Origin: a virus | Lineage: Duplodnaviria; Caudoviricetes | Strand: one strand, 5' to 3' | IMG/VR virus record: IMGVR_UViG_3300020235_000181 | Span: 1-59,854 of that record | DNA length: 59,854 bases | Shown: positions 20,115 through 41,553 of the stretch, piece after piece | Numbering within the stretch: position 1 is the first letter of the stretch | Layout: each line of letters begins with the position of its first letter | Translations under genes and position numbers: made by a program | Notes under the pieces: generated by a model | Told to the model about the DNA's origin: nothing | The model's database searches: none | What the model saw: only the letters and a program-made list of their open reading frames with translations

Positions 20115-20417
20115 ATGAGTGAAGAGATTTCTAAACGAGTGCATGAGCATATACAAATGACAAAGGCTACTTTCCACAGCGAAAGTTATGCCTCTTTGGT
20201 TAAGGGTGGTAAGCCTAGATTCAGCGTAGAGCCTATGGTCTATGTTACGGGAGTAGGTTGGAACACTGTAGATCCAATGGCAAGAGGTAATGAGTTTATG
20301 ATAGCATTTTATAACTACGTTAGGATAAAAGAATTAATGGGTTATGAACATACTGGTGAATCAAGTGCAACTATCAAGATTATATTAGAAAACTTGTGGG
20401 GTGAGAAGATTGACTGA
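20115..20417 (+). CDS. Hypothetical protein
   Basis: 100 aa ORF with a TATA box about 30 nt upstream. Confidence 0.5.
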   Translation: MSEEISKRVHEHIQMTKATFHSESYASLVKGGKPRFSVEPMVYVTGVGWNTVDPMARGNEFMIAFYNYVRIKELMGYEHTGESSATIKIILENLWGEKID

Positions 20418-20928
20418 AAAATGTATGTTTCCATTTCAAGGATGTACTTGTGGTAAATGTATTACAGGTGCGTATGATGGAAAAGTAGTACAACCTATTC
20501 GTACACCTACATCAGTAGATCCTTATTCAATTAATGATTTAGACCATATTGAATTTGTAACTAAAGACAGTGGTGAACGCAGACACTTTGACACAGGTGC
20601 TCAAAGAGATGTAGCAACAAACAAGGGGAGATACGATCTAATATCACCAATAGTAATGGATAGACTTGCTAAACTGATGGAAAGGGGTGCAGTAAAGTAT
20701 GATGATCGCAACTGGGAAAAAGGTATGCCACTTCACGTATATGTTGATTCAGGCTTGCGACACATATACAAGTTCTTGGAAGGTCATAGGGATGAAGATC
20801 ATTTGATCGCAGCTATTTGGAATTTTTCAGCACTACTACACATAGAGGAAATGATCAAGCGTGGGAAGTTATCGAAAGACTTAAATGACTTACCAAATTA
20901 TATTGAGGAAGATAATGAGTCAAAGTAA
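20401..20928 (+). CDS. dATP/dGTP diphosphohydrolase (DUF5664-like)
   Basis: 'KGRYDLI...GAVKYDDRNWEKG...RH...EDHL.A..WN' signature. Confidence 0.8.
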   Translation: MRRLTEKCMFPFQGCTCGKCITGAYDGKVVQPIRTPTSVDPYSINDLDHIEFVTKDSGERRHFDTGAQRDVATNKGRYDLISPIVMDRLAKLMERGAVKYDDRNWEKGMPLHVYVDSGLRHIYKFLEGHRDEDHLIAAIWNFSALLHIEEMIKRGKLSKDLNDLPNYIEEDNESK

Positions 20929-31527: not shown

Positions 31528-32616
31528 TCAAAATCAACCTCTATTATTTGCTTTTCAACGTCTATGATTTTAATATCATTGATGATAACCTCATCGCTAT
31601 ACATCAGTTTTACTAATTCATATAAATCATAAATATCAATCAATCTCGATCATTCCTCATATCTGCTATGTTTGCACCATAATCTGCTCTATGCTCATCA
31701 CACATCATATCAAAATCTTGATCTGTGTCGCCCGTGCAATCCTCAATTCCATAAGAACATTCTTCGATCATATTTTTAATCTCTCACATGAATCACACTT
31801 ACACTTAACTGCTTTGTATATTTGGTTTAATCCAGTTTGTACTATATGATCATAGTCTTTGATATTAGGAATATCAAGCAATATTTTCTTTAATGCGTGT
31901 ATTTCATAATATGACAATTTTACTGTTTTGTTTCTGTATATTTTAGGGTACATAATAGTATTATATATCTTGTATAATATAAATGTATGTTTTAAAAAAT
32001 AGGATTAGGTATTTATTAGATACCTTTTTTCATTTCTTTAAGATGTTTTTTTTCTTGATTGATTTTTTTCTCAAGTTGTTTCATGTCTTTTTTATATTCA
32101 CTCTTGTATATTTTTTTGTAGCATTTCATACAGTATTCATTATATTGCATACATTGATAGGAATTATATCCTAGTTGTTCACGCATACATTTTTCACCCT
32201 TATCCATGTGTCGCCTACATTTTATACATGGTGTTCCCCAACGTCTTATCCTAACTGTTGATTCATAAAAGTCACTTATAGTCATTTTCTATACTCACAT
32301 TCGTTTATATGTTCTTGTTGTGAATATTGATCTACTTCCTCGTTACAGCGATCGCAATACACTCTTACTTCGTATGAAAAGTCTTTTTCTAATTCAATTT
32401 TTTCTGTTGTAGTTGTCATTGTTATATTATACGCTATTAAACATATAAACTGTTCCAAGTAAACCAAGATCACCAAGTATTGTTATATATACTATTAACA
32501 AAACGCAAAATTTCTTGATATATTGTTTCTTTATATACTATATATATTAATTAGCGTAGTTTGAACTGGTTGCTGGTAGTGTTGTACACCTATTCAGGAG
32601 TATTTCGTGCCTAGAA

Positions 32617-32687
32617 TATCACTCTGCTGGCGGATGTTCCGGATGCACCCGTGATGCACACAGCTCCATGTGTTGCAATATGTGATA
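32617..32687 (-). ncRNA. Candidate structured small RNA (4-way junction)
   Basis: Closing stem TATCAC/GTGATA around hairpins ACACA/TGTGT, GCATC/GGTGC and CGGA/TCCG; GC-rich island in an intergenic gap. Confidence 0.4.
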
Positions 32688-33497
32688 ATAGTATTTTGTG
32701 GGGTTTTAGTTGTTGATAAAATATAACACATTATACATCAAAGTTATCATCTTTAATGTGAAATACTTTTTTTTGTAATTTATTAACAATAAATTCTAAA
32801 GTACCCTCAAGATCATCTAACATTTTATCAGTTTCTTCTTTGGTTAATCCAAATTCATTTCTTGCTTGTAATAATATAGACTTGGTATAATTCATTGGTA
32901 CTTTCATAGTTGCCACAGCTCCAAATATTACGCAAAACATTTCTTTGTTGGTAATCATGTTGTTATACACATAACACTTCCTAATATATACTTTCCCTAT
33001 ACTTTTCTTTTATATACTATTAAGCGTGTTTTTAATATTCTTCAACTGGGGTGTAGGAGGATGACGCTTCTTTTTAGGCACGAATTATCTGGTTTTACGG
33101 CATATTTTTCCTGATACATACATACTGTACGGCATAACCGTATGGTTATACGAAAAAATTTCGTATAACATTTTTAGGATATTATTATCCAAACTACTTT
33201 GCCATAAATAAAATTACCCATTGGCTTAGATTTAGTTCCATCACGTTCTGAATACACTATATGAATGTTATGCCTACCCATTTCATGCCTTGATTTTCTA
33301 ATATCTATTAATGGATCGTTATTATCGAATGTTTGATCACATAAACTGCATTTAATTAAGCCCAAATAAGTCGTCTCCTTTTTTTCTGAAGGGTGACGCT
33401 CCCCGTTGTGCCGTATTTTCGTGCCTAGAAGTAGCATCTACACCCCGCATGGTTTGGTTATTTGTATATATACTCAGGTTATTATTACTATATAAGA

Positions 33498-33887
33498 TCA
33501 TACGCCTAGCTCATCCTCGTCAGGCGTAAAATCAAATAAATTAGTCATATCATTCAAGTGATCATGTATTAATTGCCCTTGTCTAGTCATGGTTACTTGT
33601 TGTTTTTCAATATACACCAAGCATTGAGTATTATTAACTATGACATTAATACGATCATACAAATTATTTTCGTACTTATCAAGTTTTAATAAATCATATT
33701 CATTGACATTAAATAATATACCGTCTGTTATACTTCCAAATTTGTGTTTAATTGTTAAATATATTGAATAACTACAATTTACCAATTCATAATTAAACAA
33801 TCTAGCGGGGAATGAATTTGTATTATGTCCTAATATATTAGATCGAACATAATCATCTATTAAAGTACCATACGTGAACATTAACAT
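33498..33887 (-). CDS. Gamma-glutamylcyclotransferase (AIG2-like)
   Basis: 'MFTYGTL', 'G.LF.V...DL.KLDKYE..LY.R..V' and 'VY'. Confidence 0.85.
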   Translation of the reverse strand: MLMFTYGTLIDDYVRSNILGHNTNSFPARLFNYELVNCSYSIYLTIKHKFGSITDGILFNVNEYDLLKLDKYENNLYDRINVIVNNTQCLVYIEKQQVTMTRQGQLIHDHLNDMTNLFDFTPDEDELGV

Positions 33888-35532: not shown

Positions 35533-36558
35533 TCATTGGTAATACTGCTCCCAAGCTGGTGTAAATTGGTTATCCCCTTGAATCCATCGGGATTTATTTC
35601 CATAAATATCATCAAATAGATCGTAAATATCGATCATTAGTAAACCATCGCATAAACGATCTAATATCTCATCGTCTGTTACCTGAAATTCTTTTACGCA
35701 TAAATCATAATACTTTAAATCAGTTTTTGTCTTTAAAAAAGCCTTGATTTGATCGCTTGTCATATCGGGATTAATATTATTAACTTTTTCATTCCAATTC
35801 ATTGATTTTTTTTCTTTATATACTGTTAACGCTTGTTTTGAGATGTTATCTTTGAGATTTTTTTCAGTTTCCTTGGCTTTTTCCTTTTTTTTACCATTTA
35901 CCCACACGCCATAATTATTATAATTTTCATTATATCCACCATACCAAGCGTTATCATAATTAAACATACTGTTTGTTGTTGCTGTTTTTTTAACAAAGTA
36001 ATCATTAGAGCATTGGTTATCGTCAACTTTAACCCATGAACCAAATTTAACAATCCCTTTTTTAGTTAAAATACTAAATTTATTCATAGTCGAATCTTTT
36101 ATTATGTCATTTCCATGTCGATTTAATAAAAATGCGATCACTCTTGAATCGCTTAATTCACCTTTTGGGATTTTAGCTGGATTATCTTGGATTGATTTAA
36201 TGAGCATTTTTTCCCAATTTGAAACCGTTCCGTTATGGAATAAAACGTCAAACTTTGAATTATCCACGTGAAGATCGGTTTTTACTTCTTTTGAAATTGG
36301 AAATGGGTGGCATAATTTAGGGTTTACATTTCCCACGCTTGCAATTCTAAAATGAATAATTGCAGTCTTAACTTTATTTGGAATTAATCTTTTTTCAATT
36401 ATTTTGATGATTTTTTTAGCCTTTAATCCTTTTCTGTAATTGATTTTTCCTTTTTCTAACCATGCGATCGATCCGCCATGACTATTCATGGATTCAGCAT
36501 CTTTTAAAGTCTGAGATTTTGGGAATTTTCCATCCTCAATATTTATTATTACACACAT
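35533..36558 (-). CDS. Class II (Ntn) glutamine amidotransferase
   Basis: N-terminal Cys (MCVII), 'N.HG', 'HFRIAS.G', 'CHPF', 'FHNG' and 'SDSR'. Confidence 0.85.
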   Translation of the reverse strand: MCVIINIEDGKFPKSQTLKDAESMNSHGGSIAWLEKGKINYRKGLKAKKIIKIIEKRLIPNKVKTAIIHFRIASVGNVNPKLCHPFPISKEVKTDLHVDNSKFDVLFHNGTVSNWEKMLIKSIQDNPAKIPKGELSDSRVIAFLLNRHGNDIIKDSTMNKFSILTKKGIVKFGSWVKVDDNQCSNDYFVKKTATTNSMFNYDNAWYGGYNENYNNYGVWVNGKKKEKAKETEKNLKDNISKQALTVYKEKKSMNWNEKVNNINPDMTSDQIKAFLKTKTDLKYYDLCVKEFQVTDDEILDRLCDGLLMIDIYDLFDDIYGNKSRWIQGDNQFTPAWEQYYQ

Positions 36559-36645: not shown

Positions 36646-37386
36646 TTAAGTTGATCCTCTAAAGGTAATTGTTTTAATTTCACCTTTTAATTCTAGGTAA
36701 TCCTCAATAATTTGTATAATTTCTAAAGTGGCAGAAATTTGTAATTTTTTACTCTTAAAAGTTGGTAATAAACGAAATTCTAAAGTTTTTCTTTGTTGAT
36801 TGTTATAACAATAATTTAATTGAGAATATCGTTCAGACATTAAATTTCTAGTCATATCTCTTTGAGCTTCACAATTAAATCTATGCCAATTATATTCCGT
36901 ACCGTTTTGACCTACACGATCCCAAAATGGTGAATTTGCTCTAATGTGGTTTTTTGTTCCCCATTCATTCATTCGTTTTAAGGTATATTCATAAAATTCT
37001 GTACACATTAAAGTCATATAATCGCAAGCTGATTTTAACGAAACGTGGATATGACCTCCACAATGAGAATTTGTGCCTTGAGGGTGGCATTTATCAATAA
37101 ATTCTTCAATTTCTGAAACATCTAATTTATTACTAATCCATTCCCCGATCCCACTTTTTTCCATTTCCTTAGTGCACCTACATTCGTGATATGGGCACGT
37201 GCAATAATTATCAGATAAGTGATTAAAACCGACTACGCTTGAATCGCTTGTAAAATGACCTTTAAAAAATGGGATTAATTGGAAATTACCCTCTAATTCA
37301 ATTCCAACTTTATAAATTCTATTACAAACTTTTGTATAAGTTGTAAGACCATGAGATAAATCTCTAATTGTTATTGTATTACTCAT
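36646..37386 (-). CDS. Putative amidoligase (COOH-NH2 ligase, Amidoligase_2-like)
   Basis: 'GIELEG', 'DSSV', 'GEW.S', 'CGGHIHVS', 'RYSQLN' and 'TLEFR'. Confidence 0.8.
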   Translation of the reverse strand: MSNTITIRDLSHGLTTYTKVCNRIYKVGIELEGNFQLIPFFKGHFTSDSSVVGFNHLSDNYCTCPYHECRCTKEMEKSGIGEWISNKLDVSEIEEFIDKCHPQGTNSHCGGHIHVSLKSACDYMTLMCTEFYEYTLKRMNEWGTKNHIRANSPFWDRVGQNGTEYNWHRFNCEAQRDMTRNLMSERYSQLNYCYNNQQRKTLEFRLLPTFKSKKLQISATLEIIQIIEDYLELKGEIKTITFRGST

Positions 37387-37775
37387 AATAAATCAAATCT
37401 CCTAATGTATTTTTTCATTAATTTTAAGTAAACTTTGAATAATTCGATCCACTCTTTGATCTCACGATCTGTAAAAACGTTATAAATTTCACCCTCATTC
37501 ACAATATCATCTTTATTGATAAATGATAAATTTGGGATTCCATTTAGTGTTAATCTTGGTAAATCTCTATAATAGAAATTTAATGAACGGTTTAATCGTG
37601 TAAATTCTCCAGCTATAAATTCACCTGAATTTTCCATGTCAGCATATTTTGAATTTAATTTTTGTGCCATTAATCCTATTCTCTTAGCCATAACTGTTAT
37701 TCTTATTCCATCGTCAGTTTTACTCATGGCTATTTTCCAATTTACCTTTGATTGTCGCTTATGAACTAAAGACAT
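37383..37775 (-). CDS. Hypothetical protein, first gene of the amidoligase operon
   Basis: Overlaps the amidoligase start (ATGA); TATA box and TAGGCACGAAATAC motif upstream. Confidence 0.55.
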   Translation of the reverse strand: MSLVHKRQSKVNWKIAMSKTDDGIRITVMAKRIGLMAQKLNSKYADMENSGEFIAGEFTRLNRSLNFYYRDLPRLTLNGIPNLSFINKDDIVNEGEIYNVFTDREIKEWIELFKVYLKLMKKYIRRFDLL

Positions 37776-37980
37776 GGCTATTCTAGGAATAAATCATATA
37801 TATTACTTTAAGGGTATTTCGTGCCTAATTTGGTGAACCTCATACTTTAAGCGTGATTTTGGCTATTTTCGATATTTTGTTGACTTAAAGATTATTTCAT
37901 ATTTTTTTAGCGATCATAAAAATCGGGATTTATTGATTTTACCCTATAAGTAAGGATAAGAGATCAATATAAACTGTGGA

Positions 37981-38324
37981 ATTGGATAGTATGTATATTT
38001 TCATATTTTATGTTACCTCTATTTATAAATCATTTTAGCTTAACCTAATGTGATCAAATTGTGTAAAACAACAGTCAAAACCAAAACTGAGAAATTCCGC
38101 ATAACTTACTGCAATACTATTTTATGCGAAAATAGAGGTCATATCATAGAAATAGAATAATTACATTATTCTGTTTTTTTTTCATTTTATGTTTGTATGT
38201 ATATTTTCATATTTTAAAATACTATAATTGCATAATTTGATTTAATGTATGTATGATTTATAATAATTGGATAGTATGTATATCTTTGAATATTATGTTA
38301 CAATGTTTATAATACAATTAAAGC
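37981..38324. repeat. Degenerate direct repeats of about 55 bp
   Basis: ATTGGATAGTATGTATAT...TTATGTTAC at 37981 and 38266, with a partial copy at 38195. Confidence 0.75.
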
Positions 38325-38583
38325 ATAGATCGGGCGATCAATCGCTTATAAGCCTTTTTCTCATAGGATCTTAACAGTTATGCCTAACTGCGATCAAATA
38401 GGCGTGACTGCGATCAATTCGTGCCTGAGTTTAGTATATATACAAATAAGAATCCCTATTTTATACTTTATAATACGGTACTTAAATACTAAAAAAATGC
38501 TAGGCGTGGATTTCAAAAATGATACAAATCTTGTTTGTAGTGTTTTTCATTTTGACCATTCGTTTATATACTCCCCAAAAACC

Positions 38584-38750
38584 TAGGCGTTATATAAGGA
38601 GACTTAGGCGTTTTATAAGCTCCAGATAGGCGTTATATAAAGGAAAATCTAGGCGACATATAAGCAATATGGGCGTTATATATACTCACAATAGGCGTTA
38701 TATAAGGAAAAACCTAGGCGACATATAAGGCTAGTAGGCGTTATATATAC
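38584..38750 (+). repeat. Array of 8 (A/G)GGCG(TT/AC)(A/T)TATA repeats, 20-23 bp period
   Basis: Copies start at 38585, 38606, 38628, 38651, 38671, 38693, 38716 and 38736, with a 65-bp higher-order duplication. Confidence 0.92.
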
Positions 38751-39337
38751 CCCCGATCGTGCCTATACTCTATTAGTATATATACTATGCTCATACTATC
38801 ATACTATGTAGGCACAACACATATGATGTTCATACTATTTAGGCGTGATCGCAAAATTCCACGAGCAAAGGTTTATATGGGATGACCATTCAGATCCTCA
38901 TACCTAGTATAATTTTGCAGTAACATGATTTATATATCTATAGAAAATATTAGAATTTCGGGAAAACAATGATATATAAAGAAAGGACTCATAGACTAAT
39001 GAGTTCAGTCACCCAAGACTAATGGAGTACATTCGCCCATTATTAATTCGGGAAGTGGTATATATAAGTCTATCTGTATTTACAACTATGCTTGTAGTAG
39101 TCAGTCTCATACATGAAAGTTCTCTTGCAGTTGTAACATTGTAAGTCTGGTAAGTTCATTAGTATAACGTGAGAGCACACCAGCCATGTTTAATATTTCT
39201 ATCTGGTTTGGTTACATATCCCGCTATGTATCACAGTAGACGCTTTCACTATATACTCAGGAAAGAAGTATATATAAGTGTTTAAGACATGAGGATTTCA
39301 TCTCCCGATTATATATATAGCTTCGGTGGAACGATAA

Positions 39338-39440
39338 TGTAGCCGTAGCTCAGAGTGTGTCCTCACGACCTGTCTGCTTGTAGCAGATTATTCGTACCTT
39401 AGTATTCAACAGAGTTATAAACCACACAGAGGCTACCCCC
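39338..39440 (-). ncRNA. Candidate structured small RNA
   Basis: Terminal pairing GTAG-CTC-GTGTG with CACAC-GAG-CTAC, internal hairpins TCTGCT/AGCAGA and GTC-GTGAG-GAC, and a TATA box at about 39478-39485. Confidence 0.4.
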
Positions 39441-39525
39441 AAAATTTAATTTGGTTAATATAATAGATAGTAAATAGTATATAAGTGTTAAAAACGAAAA
39501 CGGTAAACTATAGTAAACTATACTA

Positions 39526-39603
39526 TAGTAGGGGTAGCTAGTCAAGCTACTCCTCTTAGCAAATCCCAGCTATACCAAGTATGCGGACTCACACCACCCT
39601 ACC
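39526..39603 (-). ncRNA. tRNA-like small RNA (non-canonical cloverleaf)
   Basis: 7-bp acceptor-like stem GGTAGGG/CCCTACT stacked on a 5-bp stem with 7-nt loop (GTAGC TTGACTA GCTAC), plus two more hairpins; TTTTAATA begins 29 nt upstream of G1. Confidence 0.5.
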
Positions 39604-40041
39604 ACTACTGTTGTGTATGCCTGTTATTAAAAGTTGCCCAAAAAAAATTTAAGTGCTTCGCCTACCGCAAATCCGTTATCGATCTCTTGTTGTGAAACCA
39701 TCGTGTTATGTCCACCCCGTCTCCCCCAAGAATCCAATAGTTTACGTGGTTAGCGTAGTGTGTGTTATTGTACTCATGGACTTTCATGTTAGTCTGTCTA
39801 AATCTCCGTAACTGCTTCGTTTTTCAATCTTACCCGTACTTACATAATAATCGAAACAACTGTCACATATTGTATGCTTCTTATCACATTCTTTACATGA
39901 GCATAGGTGATTACCCTCATATTCTGCATGGCAAAAATCACAAGTCTCAGTCATTTTAACCCTACAGTAAAGTTTAGTTCCTTATGAAAAGATTTATCAT
40001 CATTGTGCCATAAGTATATAATGGATAAGAATTGCCAGTTA

Positions 40042-40578
40042 CTATTCATTAACTTCATACTCTGGTACTCTTGTTCCCCTTTCACCATGAGGTCTTGTTG
40101 CATCATATATACATTCATCATAAAATCTACCAGCATGATCTGATGATGTAGATACAGTAAATGACATATTATATTCGCTATTAAAAACAGATTCATAAGA
40201 ACCATTTTTAACCTTGGTAAATTTTTTCTTTTCAAGAGGTAGCCCCTTCTTCATCAAAATATCCCTATGCTTCTCATTAAAGTGTTTCACAAATTCCTCT
40301 TTAACAGATTCAAAAATCTCTTCGCTTTCACAATGCCCGAACTCGCTTGAATAGTAACCACATCTCTCACATCCCCCATACACATCAGCCAAACTTAAAG
40401 TAAAAGATCCCATATAACTCAAGTCAGTAACATGAATATCCGTGTCTACAGTAGTAGATACATTAGTTCCATTATCTATTGTACCCGTAGCAGTTGGATC
40501 AGTATCAAGAACTAGAGATAACTCAACAGCGTCACCAATCAGTTCCTCAGCAGAAAAAAGTGGAGTTGGATCAGCCAT
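40042..40578 (-). CDS. Hypothetical protein, apparent C-terminal half of a split gene
   Basis: ATG 40578 overlaps the upstream stop; an acidic 62-aa segment precedes 'YGGCERC...FVKHFNEKH'. Confidence 0.5.
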   Translation of the reverse strand: MADPTPLFSAEELIGDAVELSLVLDTDPTATGTIDNGTNVSTTVDTDIHVTDLSYMGSFTLSLADVYGGCERCGYYSSEFGHCESEEIFESVKEEFVKHFNEKHRDILMKKGLPLEKKKFTKVKNGSYESVFNSEYNMSFTVSTSSDHAGRFYDECIYDATRPHGERGTRVPEYEVNE

Positions 40579-40774
40579 GAGCTTCACCGACCAAACAGCT
40601 TGAAGATTCCATTATACTTCGTTCCTTTCCATCATCACTTTTAAATGACATACCTCTGGTTTTCATATAGCCCCCATTGTCAGCGATTATCTGTGACCAG
40701 TCAGGACATATCTCTTCAAAGGAAAAAATCTTTTCTGATGGATTGACCTTCTCTTCTTGTATTGTATCTAACAT
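40571..40774 (-). CDS. Hypothetical protein, apparent N-terminal half of a split gene
   Basis: ATG 40774 lies 29 nt from CTTATATT; the ORF ends 'CLVGEAHG'. Confidence 0.55.
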   Translation of the reverse strand: MLDTIQEEKVNPSEKIFSFEEICPDWSQIIADNGGYMKTRGMSFKSDDGKERSIMESSSCLVGEAHG

Positions 40775-40888
40775 GGTTATAAATAAATGTCCCGAAATAT
40801 AAGTGTTTATTTTAATATAGTATAAATTAAACGATAAGTATATATAAAGGTTTTGATTATGAATTGCGTAGGGTTTCAAACTACTGTA

Positions 40889-41299
40889 CTAACTCGGTAG
40901 GTAGGCGATTAACGGGCTACACCTGAGTTTTTCTTCATTAACTATCATATTATTCTTCAAAGATTCCCGGATTTTGTCGAAACATTGTCGAGTTATTTTT
41001 GCACGGTTGGAATTATTATTAGTTACCCTTACTCTTATTCTCTTACAATCACTACAGTATTTCATAGCCAGTGATCTTGACATTGGTAATATTCTTTTAC
41101 ACCCACAACACGTTCTGTTTTCCTTGTTCTTCCTGTCTCTAATTTTTTTTTGCATTTTGGGTTTCTGTACTTCTAGGTAATGTTTCTTCCTTTGTGCATC
41201 CCTAATTACTACACGGTGAGCATGGCAATATTTCCTTGAATACCCAAACTCGTTTCTACTAAGTGGTGCATTACAATATGGGAAATGACAAGTTGCCAT
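40889..41299 (-). CDS. Double Zn-finger protein
   Basis: C....C...KYC..H and CCGC...KYCSDC; TATA upstream. Confidence 0.6.
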   Translation of the reverse strand: MATCHFPYCNAPLSRNEFGYSRKYCHAHRVVIRDAQRKKHYLEVQKPKMQKKIRDRKNKENRTCCGCKRILPMSRSLAMKYCSDCKRIRVRVTNNNSNRAKITRQCFDKIRESLKNNMIVNEEKLRCSPLIAYLPS

Positions 41300-41331
41300 A
41301 TAAAAAAATAGAAGTTATTTAATATAAGTGT

Positions 41332-41430
41332 TTATCCTGAAGGACAGGCACTCCATCCACAGTCTTGACAAGTATGACAACCACATTGATTGATAACCAT
41401 TCCACCGTCTGAGCAATTTGGACAATTCAT
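41332..41430 (-). CDS. Zn-ribbon microprotein, 32 aa
   Basis: MNCPNCSDGGMVINQCGCHTCQDCGWSACPSG. Confidence 0.55.
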   Translation of the reverse strand: MNCPNCSDGGMVINQCGCHTCQDCGWSACPSG

Positions 41431-41478
41431 AATATAGATATTGTGCTGTGGGATAATATAAAGATTCAGATTTATAAA

Positions 41479-41553
41479 GGGGTGTAGGGAAGTCCGTGCA
41501 ACATTCCCTACTCCATAATTAGGTATGATCCCGCACTAGGCGATGCACACACC
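41479..41553 (-). ncRNA. Candidate structured small RNA
   Basis: 8-bp hairpin GTAGGGAA/TTCCCTAC, hairpins GCA/TGC and CATA/TATG, possible GTGCA/TGCAC pseudoknot; TATA about 30 nt upstream. Confidence 0.45.

Follow-up and report, generated by a model that had tools for sequence, protein, structure and literature searches.

Why should a virus place four leftward promoters one behind the other, with no long open reading frame (ORF) behind any of them? This question is raised by positions 38985-39640 of the window analysed here, by which we mean the whole 59,854-base IMG/VR virus record IMGVR_UViG_3300020235_000181. We read the window as the genome of an uncultured archaeal tailed virus, and the 656 nucleotides (nt) in question had originally been predicted to hold a cassette of structured small RNAs and micropeptides, possibly anti-defence decoys. 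The explanation that we favour, and to which we give about an even chance, is a different one: a fast-evolving stretch of promoters and terminators, with one zinc-finger micro-gene and probable gene remnants, which is flanked on one side by tiny genes and on the other by an origin-like region rich in iterons. Nothing shows a dedicated new small-RNA system. The stretch would then be the promoter-dense end of a leftward block of tiny accessory genes, at the point where this block meets the iteron-rich origin or control region. The four promoter-driven units are numbered from right to left (Table 1).

Promoters and position of the stretch

The promoters look genuine. As predicted, CTTATATA is found on the minus strand at 39068-39061, 39278-39271 and 39485-39478, with a weaker box, CTTTTAATAA, at 39633-39624, and the distances between them (210, 207 and about 148 nt) agree with the 150-210 nt originally given. 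Over the whole window CTTATATA occurs 19 times, against 6.9 +/- 2.4 in shuffled sequence, and 0 of 100 shuffles reach 19. A promoter census was made on 92 ATG-initiated ORFs of at least 50 amino acids (aa), taken from the dominant strand of each gene block and counting [CT]TTATAT, [CT]TTAAAT or TTTTATAT as TATA-type motifs. Such a motif starts 26-35 nt before the ATG in 27 of the 92 ORFs, and within the 60-nt upstream stretches 22 of 40 motif occurrences lie at exactly 29 or 30 nt, a fixed distance which indicates that many genes of this virus are leaderless. The rule agrees with an archaeal TATA box centred about 27 base pairs (bp) upstream of where transcription starts (10.64898/2026.06.17.732947); operon-internal genes have GGAGG/GGTG-like words ahead of the ATG instead. 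As a separate observation, two TATA flavours are found 29-30 nt before leaderless ATGs, TTTAAATAC mostly at rightward structural genes and CTTATAT/TTTATAT at others, and these may mark temporal promoter classes.

The promoters of the stretch also resemble those of real genes nearby. Exactly four copies of the 11-mer AACACTTATAT are found in the window, all of them on the minus strand: at 39282 and 39489, and again at 40807 and 41332, where it sits 29 nt before the ATG of a 67-aa and a 136-aa gene. The weak box at 39633 aligns, together with a run of eight T (T8) and GGGCAAC, with a related locus, L002 (local score 41), in which a leaderless 104-aa gene has its ATG 30 nt downstream of the counterpart of this box; downstream of this shared promoter L002 has 13 contiguous small minus-strand ORFs of 42-133 aa. 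L002 and a second locus, L168, belong to the same contig, G001. An A-rich stretch (AAACA) lies just upstream of the TATA elements. When units 3 and 4 are compared over the promoter and the first ~35 transcribed nt, their score is 34 against 25.1 +/- 4.6 for shuffles (10 of 300 reach 34), and we read these promoters and 5' ends as paralogous, with their start codons aligned. The orientation of the unit 4 promoter follows only from its flank similarity to the 39278 promoter, since on the plus strand the same element has an ATG at +30. On this evidence three canonical archaeal-type TATA promoters and one degenerate promoter would fire leftward, all of the class that drives the 67-aa and 136-aa genes.

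Transcription itself and the ends of the transcripts are predictions from the sequence. The T8 tract at the right-hand edge is likely the oligo-T terminator of the upstream 56-aa/41-aa operon, whereas transcription from the 39485 and 39278 promoters probably continues as far as the hairpins of unit 4, which together with their T-rich tail are probably a terminator or a shared 3' end of the minus-strand transcripts. The T-tract originally noted at the end of the three-hairpin unit, unit 4, is present (38990-38963), and another follows unit 1 (39500-39490); neither unit 2 nor unit 3 has its own terminator, and unit 2 lacks both a T-tract at its end and a start codon at leaderless spacing. The palindromes and T-tracts would serve to terminate transcription between the leftward units and the neighbouring conserved block with its rightward promoters.

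The stretch makes up the right-hand third of an ORF-poor region of 1.9 kb (37780-39660) and has AT-rich repeats to its left. The origin-type word TAGGCRY occurs 33 times in the window (14.8 +/- 3.7 expected), 12 of the 33 copies lying in 37821-38846 and none in 38985-39640, and the corresponding regions of G001 and L130 have such words as well. The iteron zone is probably a replication origin or a repressor-binding array, the assignment as an origin following from the iterons themselves. Between it and the stretch lies a conserved block; no other non-coding DNA near the stretch is shared with the relatives. Identity over the block amounts to 73-81% in L004, L007, L009 and 11 metagenome loci, and the block is recognisable in G001 (positions L004 427-536, L007 3299-3363, L125-L136 and L168 540-590); one of the 14 rows of the block alignment is a chance match, and a twelfth metagenome locus is a chance pattern match. 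A further plus-strand TATA copy at 38971 faces the stretch, with an ATG 28 nt after it. In most relatives rightward genes begin within ~150 nt of the block. The window and G001 instead have an ORF-poor stretch with leftward promoters beside it, and the order of elements in G001 (iterons, block, ORF-poor stretch with minus-strand promoters) is that of the window.

Two further observations concern these origin-like regions. The first ~150 nt of the G001 contig (L168 1-150, L002 17-166) are an inverted copy of a 49-aa gene ~2.7 kb inward, so that the copies bracket its origin-like region; either the segment can invert or the assembly has produced a fold-back artefact. In the window, an AT-rich 38-nt piece (37998-38035) is the sole match of some contigs in all four DNA runs, with raised depth; these contigs run on both sides into the same unrelated sequence, which indicates a short word common to another abundant element.

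The zinc-finger micro-ORF and signs of gene decay

The best-supported product of the stretch is the 29-aa CxxC...HxC peptide already noted in the original prediction. It exists as an ORF on the minus strand (39159-39070, CxxC-x12-HxC; 36 aa from an alternative GTG start at 39180), and we regard it as a plausible, probably real zinc-finger micro-gene that would be translated from one of the leftward transcripts. A phmmer search of 1.84 billion representative proteins gave one match (E 7.4e-7), a 141-aa protein (P0001) with three tandem copies of the zinc-finger module, to which the peptide is 48%, 44% and 38% identical over 25-27 residues by BLASTP, with alignments that begin at the ATG of the peptide itself. 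A metagenome contig of 650 nt is the source of P0001, which is a singleton and is borderline for Pfam PF24071, 'Phage FDXHR zinc binding domain' (27.1 vs 27 bits); the 29-aa peptide itself has no match to the PF24071 model. Its only Pfam match is zf-C2HC_2 (E 0.017, 15.2 bits vs a cut-off of 27). The nearest ESM Atlas clusters are all of C2H2 type at 0.95, some of them archaeal, with recognition just below the benchmark of the tool, and the best PDB matches are classical C2H2 fingers, at non-significant scores. The N-terminal core of a classical C2H2 finger is present (C-x2-4-C, an aromatic residue at +4, a hydrophobic residue and His 12 residues after the second Cys) and is unique to this ORF among the window and 24 related loci scanned; the second His of such fingers, 3-5 residues further on, is absent, and the peptide ends H-x-C-x3-stop. 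Neither tblastn against phages nor a codon-degenerate pattern run against viral contigs returned a match, and PHROGs gave no significant one. The gene block to which the ORF would belong is dominated by small zinc-binding proteins, with 56-aa, 32-aa and 41-aa CxxC proteins that are conserved in relatives.

What, then, are the other units? The absence of a long ORF behind the promoters was correctly noted: the longest in the stretch has 48 aa, and over all six frames the longest stop-free run has 56 codons, where shuffles give 69 +/- 16. In three of the four units a start codon stands 28-29 nt after the TATA box (GTG 39605, GTG 39249 and ATG 39040), followed by only 11-16 codons; the last of these opens the 11-aa ORF that had been placed at the leaderless position, and lies 28 nt after the C of the TATA box. 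GTG 39249 is in frame with the zinc-finger ORF, with two stops (39201-39199 and 39192-39190) within the 59 codons 39249-39070, and GTG 39605 (11 codons) is in frame with the 48-aa ORF, which has a TTG start (39545-39399), with one stop (39572-39570) within 68 codons. In units 1 and 3 the frame of the leaderless start is thus that of the longest downstream ORF, and the one and two stops in 68 and 59 codons compare with ~7% stop codons in the stretch as a whole. From this pattern we infer a pseudogene history, in which the zinc-finger peptide may be what survives, as C-terminal module, of a leaderless gene that once had 59 codons and now has two stops inside, and the other units would be stubs of former leaderless genes together with duplicated promoters and 5' ends. 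Local gene decay is indicated immediately upstream, where the 41-aa gene (39662-39787, minus strand) is a truncated form of a 65-aa gene of L002 (2375-2572, minus strand): its C-terminal 24 codons are missing, and the sequence around the L002 stop codon and terminator is still recognisable. No homologue of the 48-aa ORF was found among proteins of 26-84 aa. Recoding of a stop codon was considered and dropped, as TAA, TGA and TAG terminate 43, 25 and 24 of 92 genes.

The stretch itself has no detectable counterpart elsewhere. Similarity to 38985-39640, sought on DNA and in six frames, was found in none of nine RadA-linked viral loci and none of 12 block-linked metagenome loci, and three further viral scans gave no similar locus. 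The query 37700-40100 had no match in a phage DNA database, the flanking 246-aa and 181-aa proteins have no relatives among viral contigs, and the ORF-poor stretches of the window and G001 share no detectable sequence similarity. A 15-nt terminator/promoter word retrieved 111 stretches; 80 loci were fetched, and the sole related one was the contig already known. The pattern 'two promoters ~200 nt apart' led to 28 loci, none of them related.

Variation is seen among closer sequences. The runs listed for 37000-41500 include no RNA run, and the contig fragments of three other DNA runs are known as counts of changes and gaps only. Fragments 39078-39255 and 39095-39308 have 2 changes, and 5 changes and 1 gap, respectively; 39392-39644 has 14 changes and 4 gaps, and 39527-39678 has 14 changes and 13 gaps; fragment 38939-39158 has 32 changes and 12 gaps. 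These differing fragments show that strain variants exist. Two apparent skips (38981-39034 and 39554-39624) are unreliable, with flanking sides of only 21-22 nt.

Small RNAs, DNA elements or micropeptides

Folding bears directly on the RNA claims. Each unit was folded from its predicted start to its end and compared with 300 dinucleotide shuffles. On the minus strand, from which the units would be transcribed, folding is weak: z is -2.20 (p 0.027), -1.15, +1.61 and +0.15 for units 1-4, -1.9 for the unit 2 sub-stretch 39455-39330, and -0.5 for the whole 656 nt. Folding no better than dinucleotide shuffles, which the original prediction had itself named, together with an absence of transcripts, as the outcome that would speak against it, was found for units 2-4, with unit 1 borderline; the proposed structured RNAs, a long-stem RNA included, are not supported. 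On the plus strand folding is clearly more stable than in shuffles, at z -4.1 for unit 1 and from -2.8 to -3.2 for unit 4, which points to DNA dyads or terminator hairpins and not to minus-strand RNA, because the palindromes are perfect and the composition of the plus strand makes its shuffles fold poorly. The three hairpins described for 38985-39035 are all present in the plus-strand minimum-free-energy (MFE) structure, but only two of them occur in the minus-strand centroid.

The proposed tRNA-shaped 78-mer does not hold up. ARAGORN finds 0 genes in the window, and the MFE and centroid structures of the 78-mer are a long imperfect rod-like hairpin, not a cloverleaf. The Rfam tRNA model RF00005 has no match at E<=10 in 37700-40100 (2.4 kb), in 38960-39670 (711 nt) or in the whole record, whereas a control search recovered tRNA in 14 of 14 named genomes. 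Similarity to a CRISPR repeat, as expected of an RNA anti-CRISPR or solitary repeat, was sought among the Rfam CRISPR-DR families, none of which matches at E<=10 in 38960-39670. Complementarity of at least 14 nt to the rest of the virus is limited to promoter words, and antisense targets within the virus were dropped for this reason. Three other candidates were also rejected: C/D-box RNAs (no near-threshold Rfam match), the plus strand of unit 2 as an intron-bearing tRNA (suggested by a tRNA-like 5' word, but neither a D nor a T arm is visible by eye, and ARAGORN and Infernal give no match), and units 1 and 2 as paralogues of each other (score 23 vs 24.4, not significant).

Several observations weigh against our reading of the stretch as promoter/terminator DNA with gene remnants. 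Units 1 and 2 contain islands with a GC content of 0.51 (39531-39610) and 0.50 (39319-39398), compared with 0.336 (standard deviation 0.058) for the genome. Both are among its ten GC-richest 80-nt windows (top 1%), and decaying DNA in an AT-rich virus is unlikely to keep such islands. GTAGCY words are concentrated as well, with 5 of the window's 33 copies lying as inverted pairs within the 212 nt 39339-39550, and the stability of unit 1, marginal on the minus strand, is clear on the plus strand. The frame coincidences of units 1 and 3 are one-in-three events each, and the plus-strand readings of two TATA elements also have a start codon at +28 to +30. Unit 1 was rejected as a decayed copy of the 104-aa gene of L002, there being no similarity beyond the promoter (21 vs a shuffle mean of 24.6), and this leaves the remnant idea without homology support. 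The codon score of the zinc-finger ORF, -0.14, is non-coding-like (positives 0.45 +/- 0.19, negatives -0.26 +/- 0.27); the virus codon model has little power for such genes, however, since the conserved 41-aa neighbour scores only -0.04. Finally, G001 has a tRNA-like element (L168 1586-1663, minus strand) with an Rfam score of 29.2 against a gathering threshold of 29 bits and with TATA-like elements just upstream; it has GGU in the anticodon loop and a mismatched acceptor stem, and is negative in ARAGORN.

An alternative that we consider unlikely but worth keeping, and which follows the original prediction, is that units 1, 2 and perhaps 4 are promoter-to-terminator small-RNA genes of ~80-170 nt, acting as regulators, decoys or tRNA-like molecules. 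It would explain an ORF-poor stretch with class-typical promoters and a T-tract right after unit 1, and it is consistent with the GC islands, the z of unit 1 and the clustered inverted GTAGCY words, which close units 1 and 2. The same order of elements in G001, together with the tRNA-like match, makes a suggestive parallel, and ORF-less and antisense short transcripts have been documented in SSV1 (10.64898/2026.06.17.732947). Set against this are the absence of any tRNA or other Rfam family at E<=10, the shuffle-like folding of units 2-4 on the promoter strand, the lack of detectable paralogy between units 1 and 2, the lack of a homologue and hence of covariation, and the lack of complementarity in the virus beyond promoter words. 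The other ORF-poor segments of G001 also fold like shuffles (z +0.67 to -1.77). Moreover, unit 1 is rich in insertions and deletions in fragmentary contigs of other runs (X4 record 19: 14 changes and 13 gap letters in 152 nt), whereas neighbouring genes in the same run vary by just 1-2 letters per 150, although the contigs may be different strains. The ORF-poor stretches of the window and G001 both lie directly beside the conserved block, point into it and hold short promoter-driven, GC-rich units. A broader version, in which archaeal tailed viruses have here a small-RNA cassette that is close to the origin and turns over rapidly, seems to us rather less probable again; its RNAs might be decoys or derived from tRNA, or might be transcripts by which the origin is switched on, and we know of no description of such a feature. 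It is the GC islands, the GTAGCY clustering and the G001 parallel that keep both versions from sinking lower in our estimate. For the cassette as originally conceived, with structured small RNAs as anti-defence decoys, we find no positive evidence, given the lack of a tRNA or Rfam match and folding that is at most marginal.

At a similarly low level of probability we place the possibility that the palindromes, the TATA elements and the GC islands act in cis, at the level of DNA, as parts of the origin or control region and any RNAs are functionless. The palindromes could be protein-binding dyads, or short transcription into the origin could activate or insulate it. The stretch directly adjoins the conserved block and the iteron array, the structure signal is strongest on the plus strand, as for DNA dyads, and GTAGCT-N5-AGCTAC has a layout typical of a dimer operator. 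All minus-strand promoters face the iterons, in the window and in G001, and the conserved plus-strand TATA elements of the block face the stretch. However, the origin-type TAGGCRY words are confined to DNA outside the stretch, the stretch is unconserved in 13 block-bearing relatives, most of which have plus-strand genes within ~150 nt, and the origin assignment itself derives from the iterons. Priming by RNA polymerase is not required either, since the virus has its own PrimPol-MCM.

That the units encode functional leaderless micropeptides (11, 16 and 11 aa) in addition to the zinc finger is improbable: an ATG or GTG lies exactly at leaderless spacing in three of four units (binomial ~0.01 at a background of ~15%, roughly estimated from base composition and the non-gene rows of the promoter census) and the codon score of the 11-aa ORF is coding-like (0.30, over only 11 codons), but the plus strand shows this coincidence too, at 38999 and 39088, the aligned starts of units 3 and 4 lead into unrelated peptides, and no relatives are detectable for the peptides, all of them too short for testing.

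Genome setting and known systems

The features discussed above are collected in Table 1.

Table 1. Features of the stretch and its surroundings (positions in the window)
Feature	Position	Strand	Details
Iterons, ~8, spaced 21-23 nt	38577..38760		TAGGCG word and TATA-like octamer; repeat families D1, D3, D4
Conserved non-coding block	38839..38958	+	17-nt word, then three rightward TATA elements
Unit 4	38963..39040	-	11-aa ORF 39040-39005, three short hairpins, T-rich TTTCTTT...TTGTTTTCC
Unit 4 promoter (putative), ACTTATATATAC	39058..39069	-	palindromic core, readable on the plus strand too
Zinc-finger-like micro-gene (candidate), 29 aa	39070..39159	-	C-x2-C-x3-F-x5-Y-x2-H-x-C
Unit 3 micro-ORF, GTG start, 16 codons	39199..39249	-	leaderless spacing, +29
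Unit 3 promoter (putative), AACACTTATAT-type TATA	39271..39282	-	flank resembles unit 4 promoter
Unit 2, ORF-less	39290..39457	-	GTAGCC (39436-39431) pairs with GGCTAC (39344-39339); inner 6-bp hairpin
Unit 2 promoter (putative), AACACTTATAT-type TATA	39478..39489	-	11-mer common to 39282, 40807, 41332
Unit 1, ORF-less, GC-rich	39488..39605	-	perfect palindromes ~39550-39534 and 39529-39507; TTTTCGTTTTT tract 39500-39490
Unit 1 promoter (putative), weak TATA	39624..39633	-	GTG 28 nt downstream at 39605
T8 tract after 41-aa gene (39787-39662)	39640..39647	-	aligns with L002

The window is classed as linear and estimated to be 94% complete, and has a GC content of ~33%. Its genes run rightward in 1-27.9 kb and 46.4-59.8 kb and leftward in 28.0-46.2 kb. 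Pfam matches among its proteins include the large terminase, portal, tail tube, a PrimPol-MCM fusion and three DNA methylases, as well as a Rad51/RadA recombinase (239 bits), and the closest named relative of the terminase is that of Halogranum tailed virus 1 (26% identity). The radA gene is described as typical of the marine thaumarchaeal 'Marthavirus' group (PMC7678222). Searched against genome contigs, RadA had no match as a single protein, and as an alignment it had one match only, which is bacterial and unrelated. Other enzymes of the window are a dATP/dGTP diphosphohydrolase N-terminal domain (20401-20928; E 8e-19), a GGACT-type cyclotransferase (33498-33887) and a glutamine amidotransferase-like protein (35533-36558), which together with the three methylases hint at nucleotide-pool or DNA-modification functions. 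The leftward block has further ORF-poor pockets at 32286-32730 and 32970-33174, with TATA repeats and TAGGCAC words, and inside one of them lies the 80-nt window with the highest GC of the genome (0.54, 32597-32676).

If the promoter/terminator reading is true, its value lies mainly in annotation. It would supply a promoter rule for an uncultured archaeal virus lineage, with TATA boxes 29-30 nt before leaderless starts, add a 29-aa zinc-finger micro-gene of a kind that gene callers likely miss, and offer an example of variable small-gene regions decaying beside an origin-like region. Should units 1 and 2 be RNAs, a class of small RNAs close to the origin would be added to what archaeal tailed viruses have; to our knowledge such RNAs are almost unexplored outside SSV1.

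How does the stretch compare with known systems? Iteron-type replication origins are known from plasmids and viruses, and the window likewise has ~8 direct repeats with AT-rich DNA and a conserved block adjoining them; unlike in such origins, these features lie outside the coordinates of 38985-39640 itself, and their function here is a prediction. With tRNA and tRNA-like genes of viruses the stretch shares a position in non-coding DNA behind a promoter, and the tRNA-like element of G001 lies at an equivalent place, but the 78-mer of the window differs from virus tRNA genes in failing both ARAGORN and the Rfam tRNA model and in its rod-like MFE structure. The promoters of this virus are like the leaderless promoters with B-recognition element and TATA box known from SSV1 and archaeal primary transcriptomes, in their 7-8-bp AT-rich TATA and fixed distance to the start codon. 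SSV1 also has promoter-driven ORF-less transcripts of ~60-450 nt (T3D, T3E and others), some of them near its presumed origin (10.64898/2026.06.17.732947). The SSV1 short transcripts were found by RNA sequencing and its promoters are mapped, whereas the promoters and units of the window are known from sequence alone, and three of the four promoters of the stretch lack a credible gene downstream. Small C2H2-type zinc-finger proteins are known in archaeal viruses, for example AFV1p06 (PMC3541406). The 29-aa peptide departs from classical C2H2 fingers in its small size and in its last ligand, a Cys two residues after the His in place of a His at +3 to +5, but like AFV1p06-type fingers it has a single C-x2-C...F...hydrophobic...H module within a very small viral protein.

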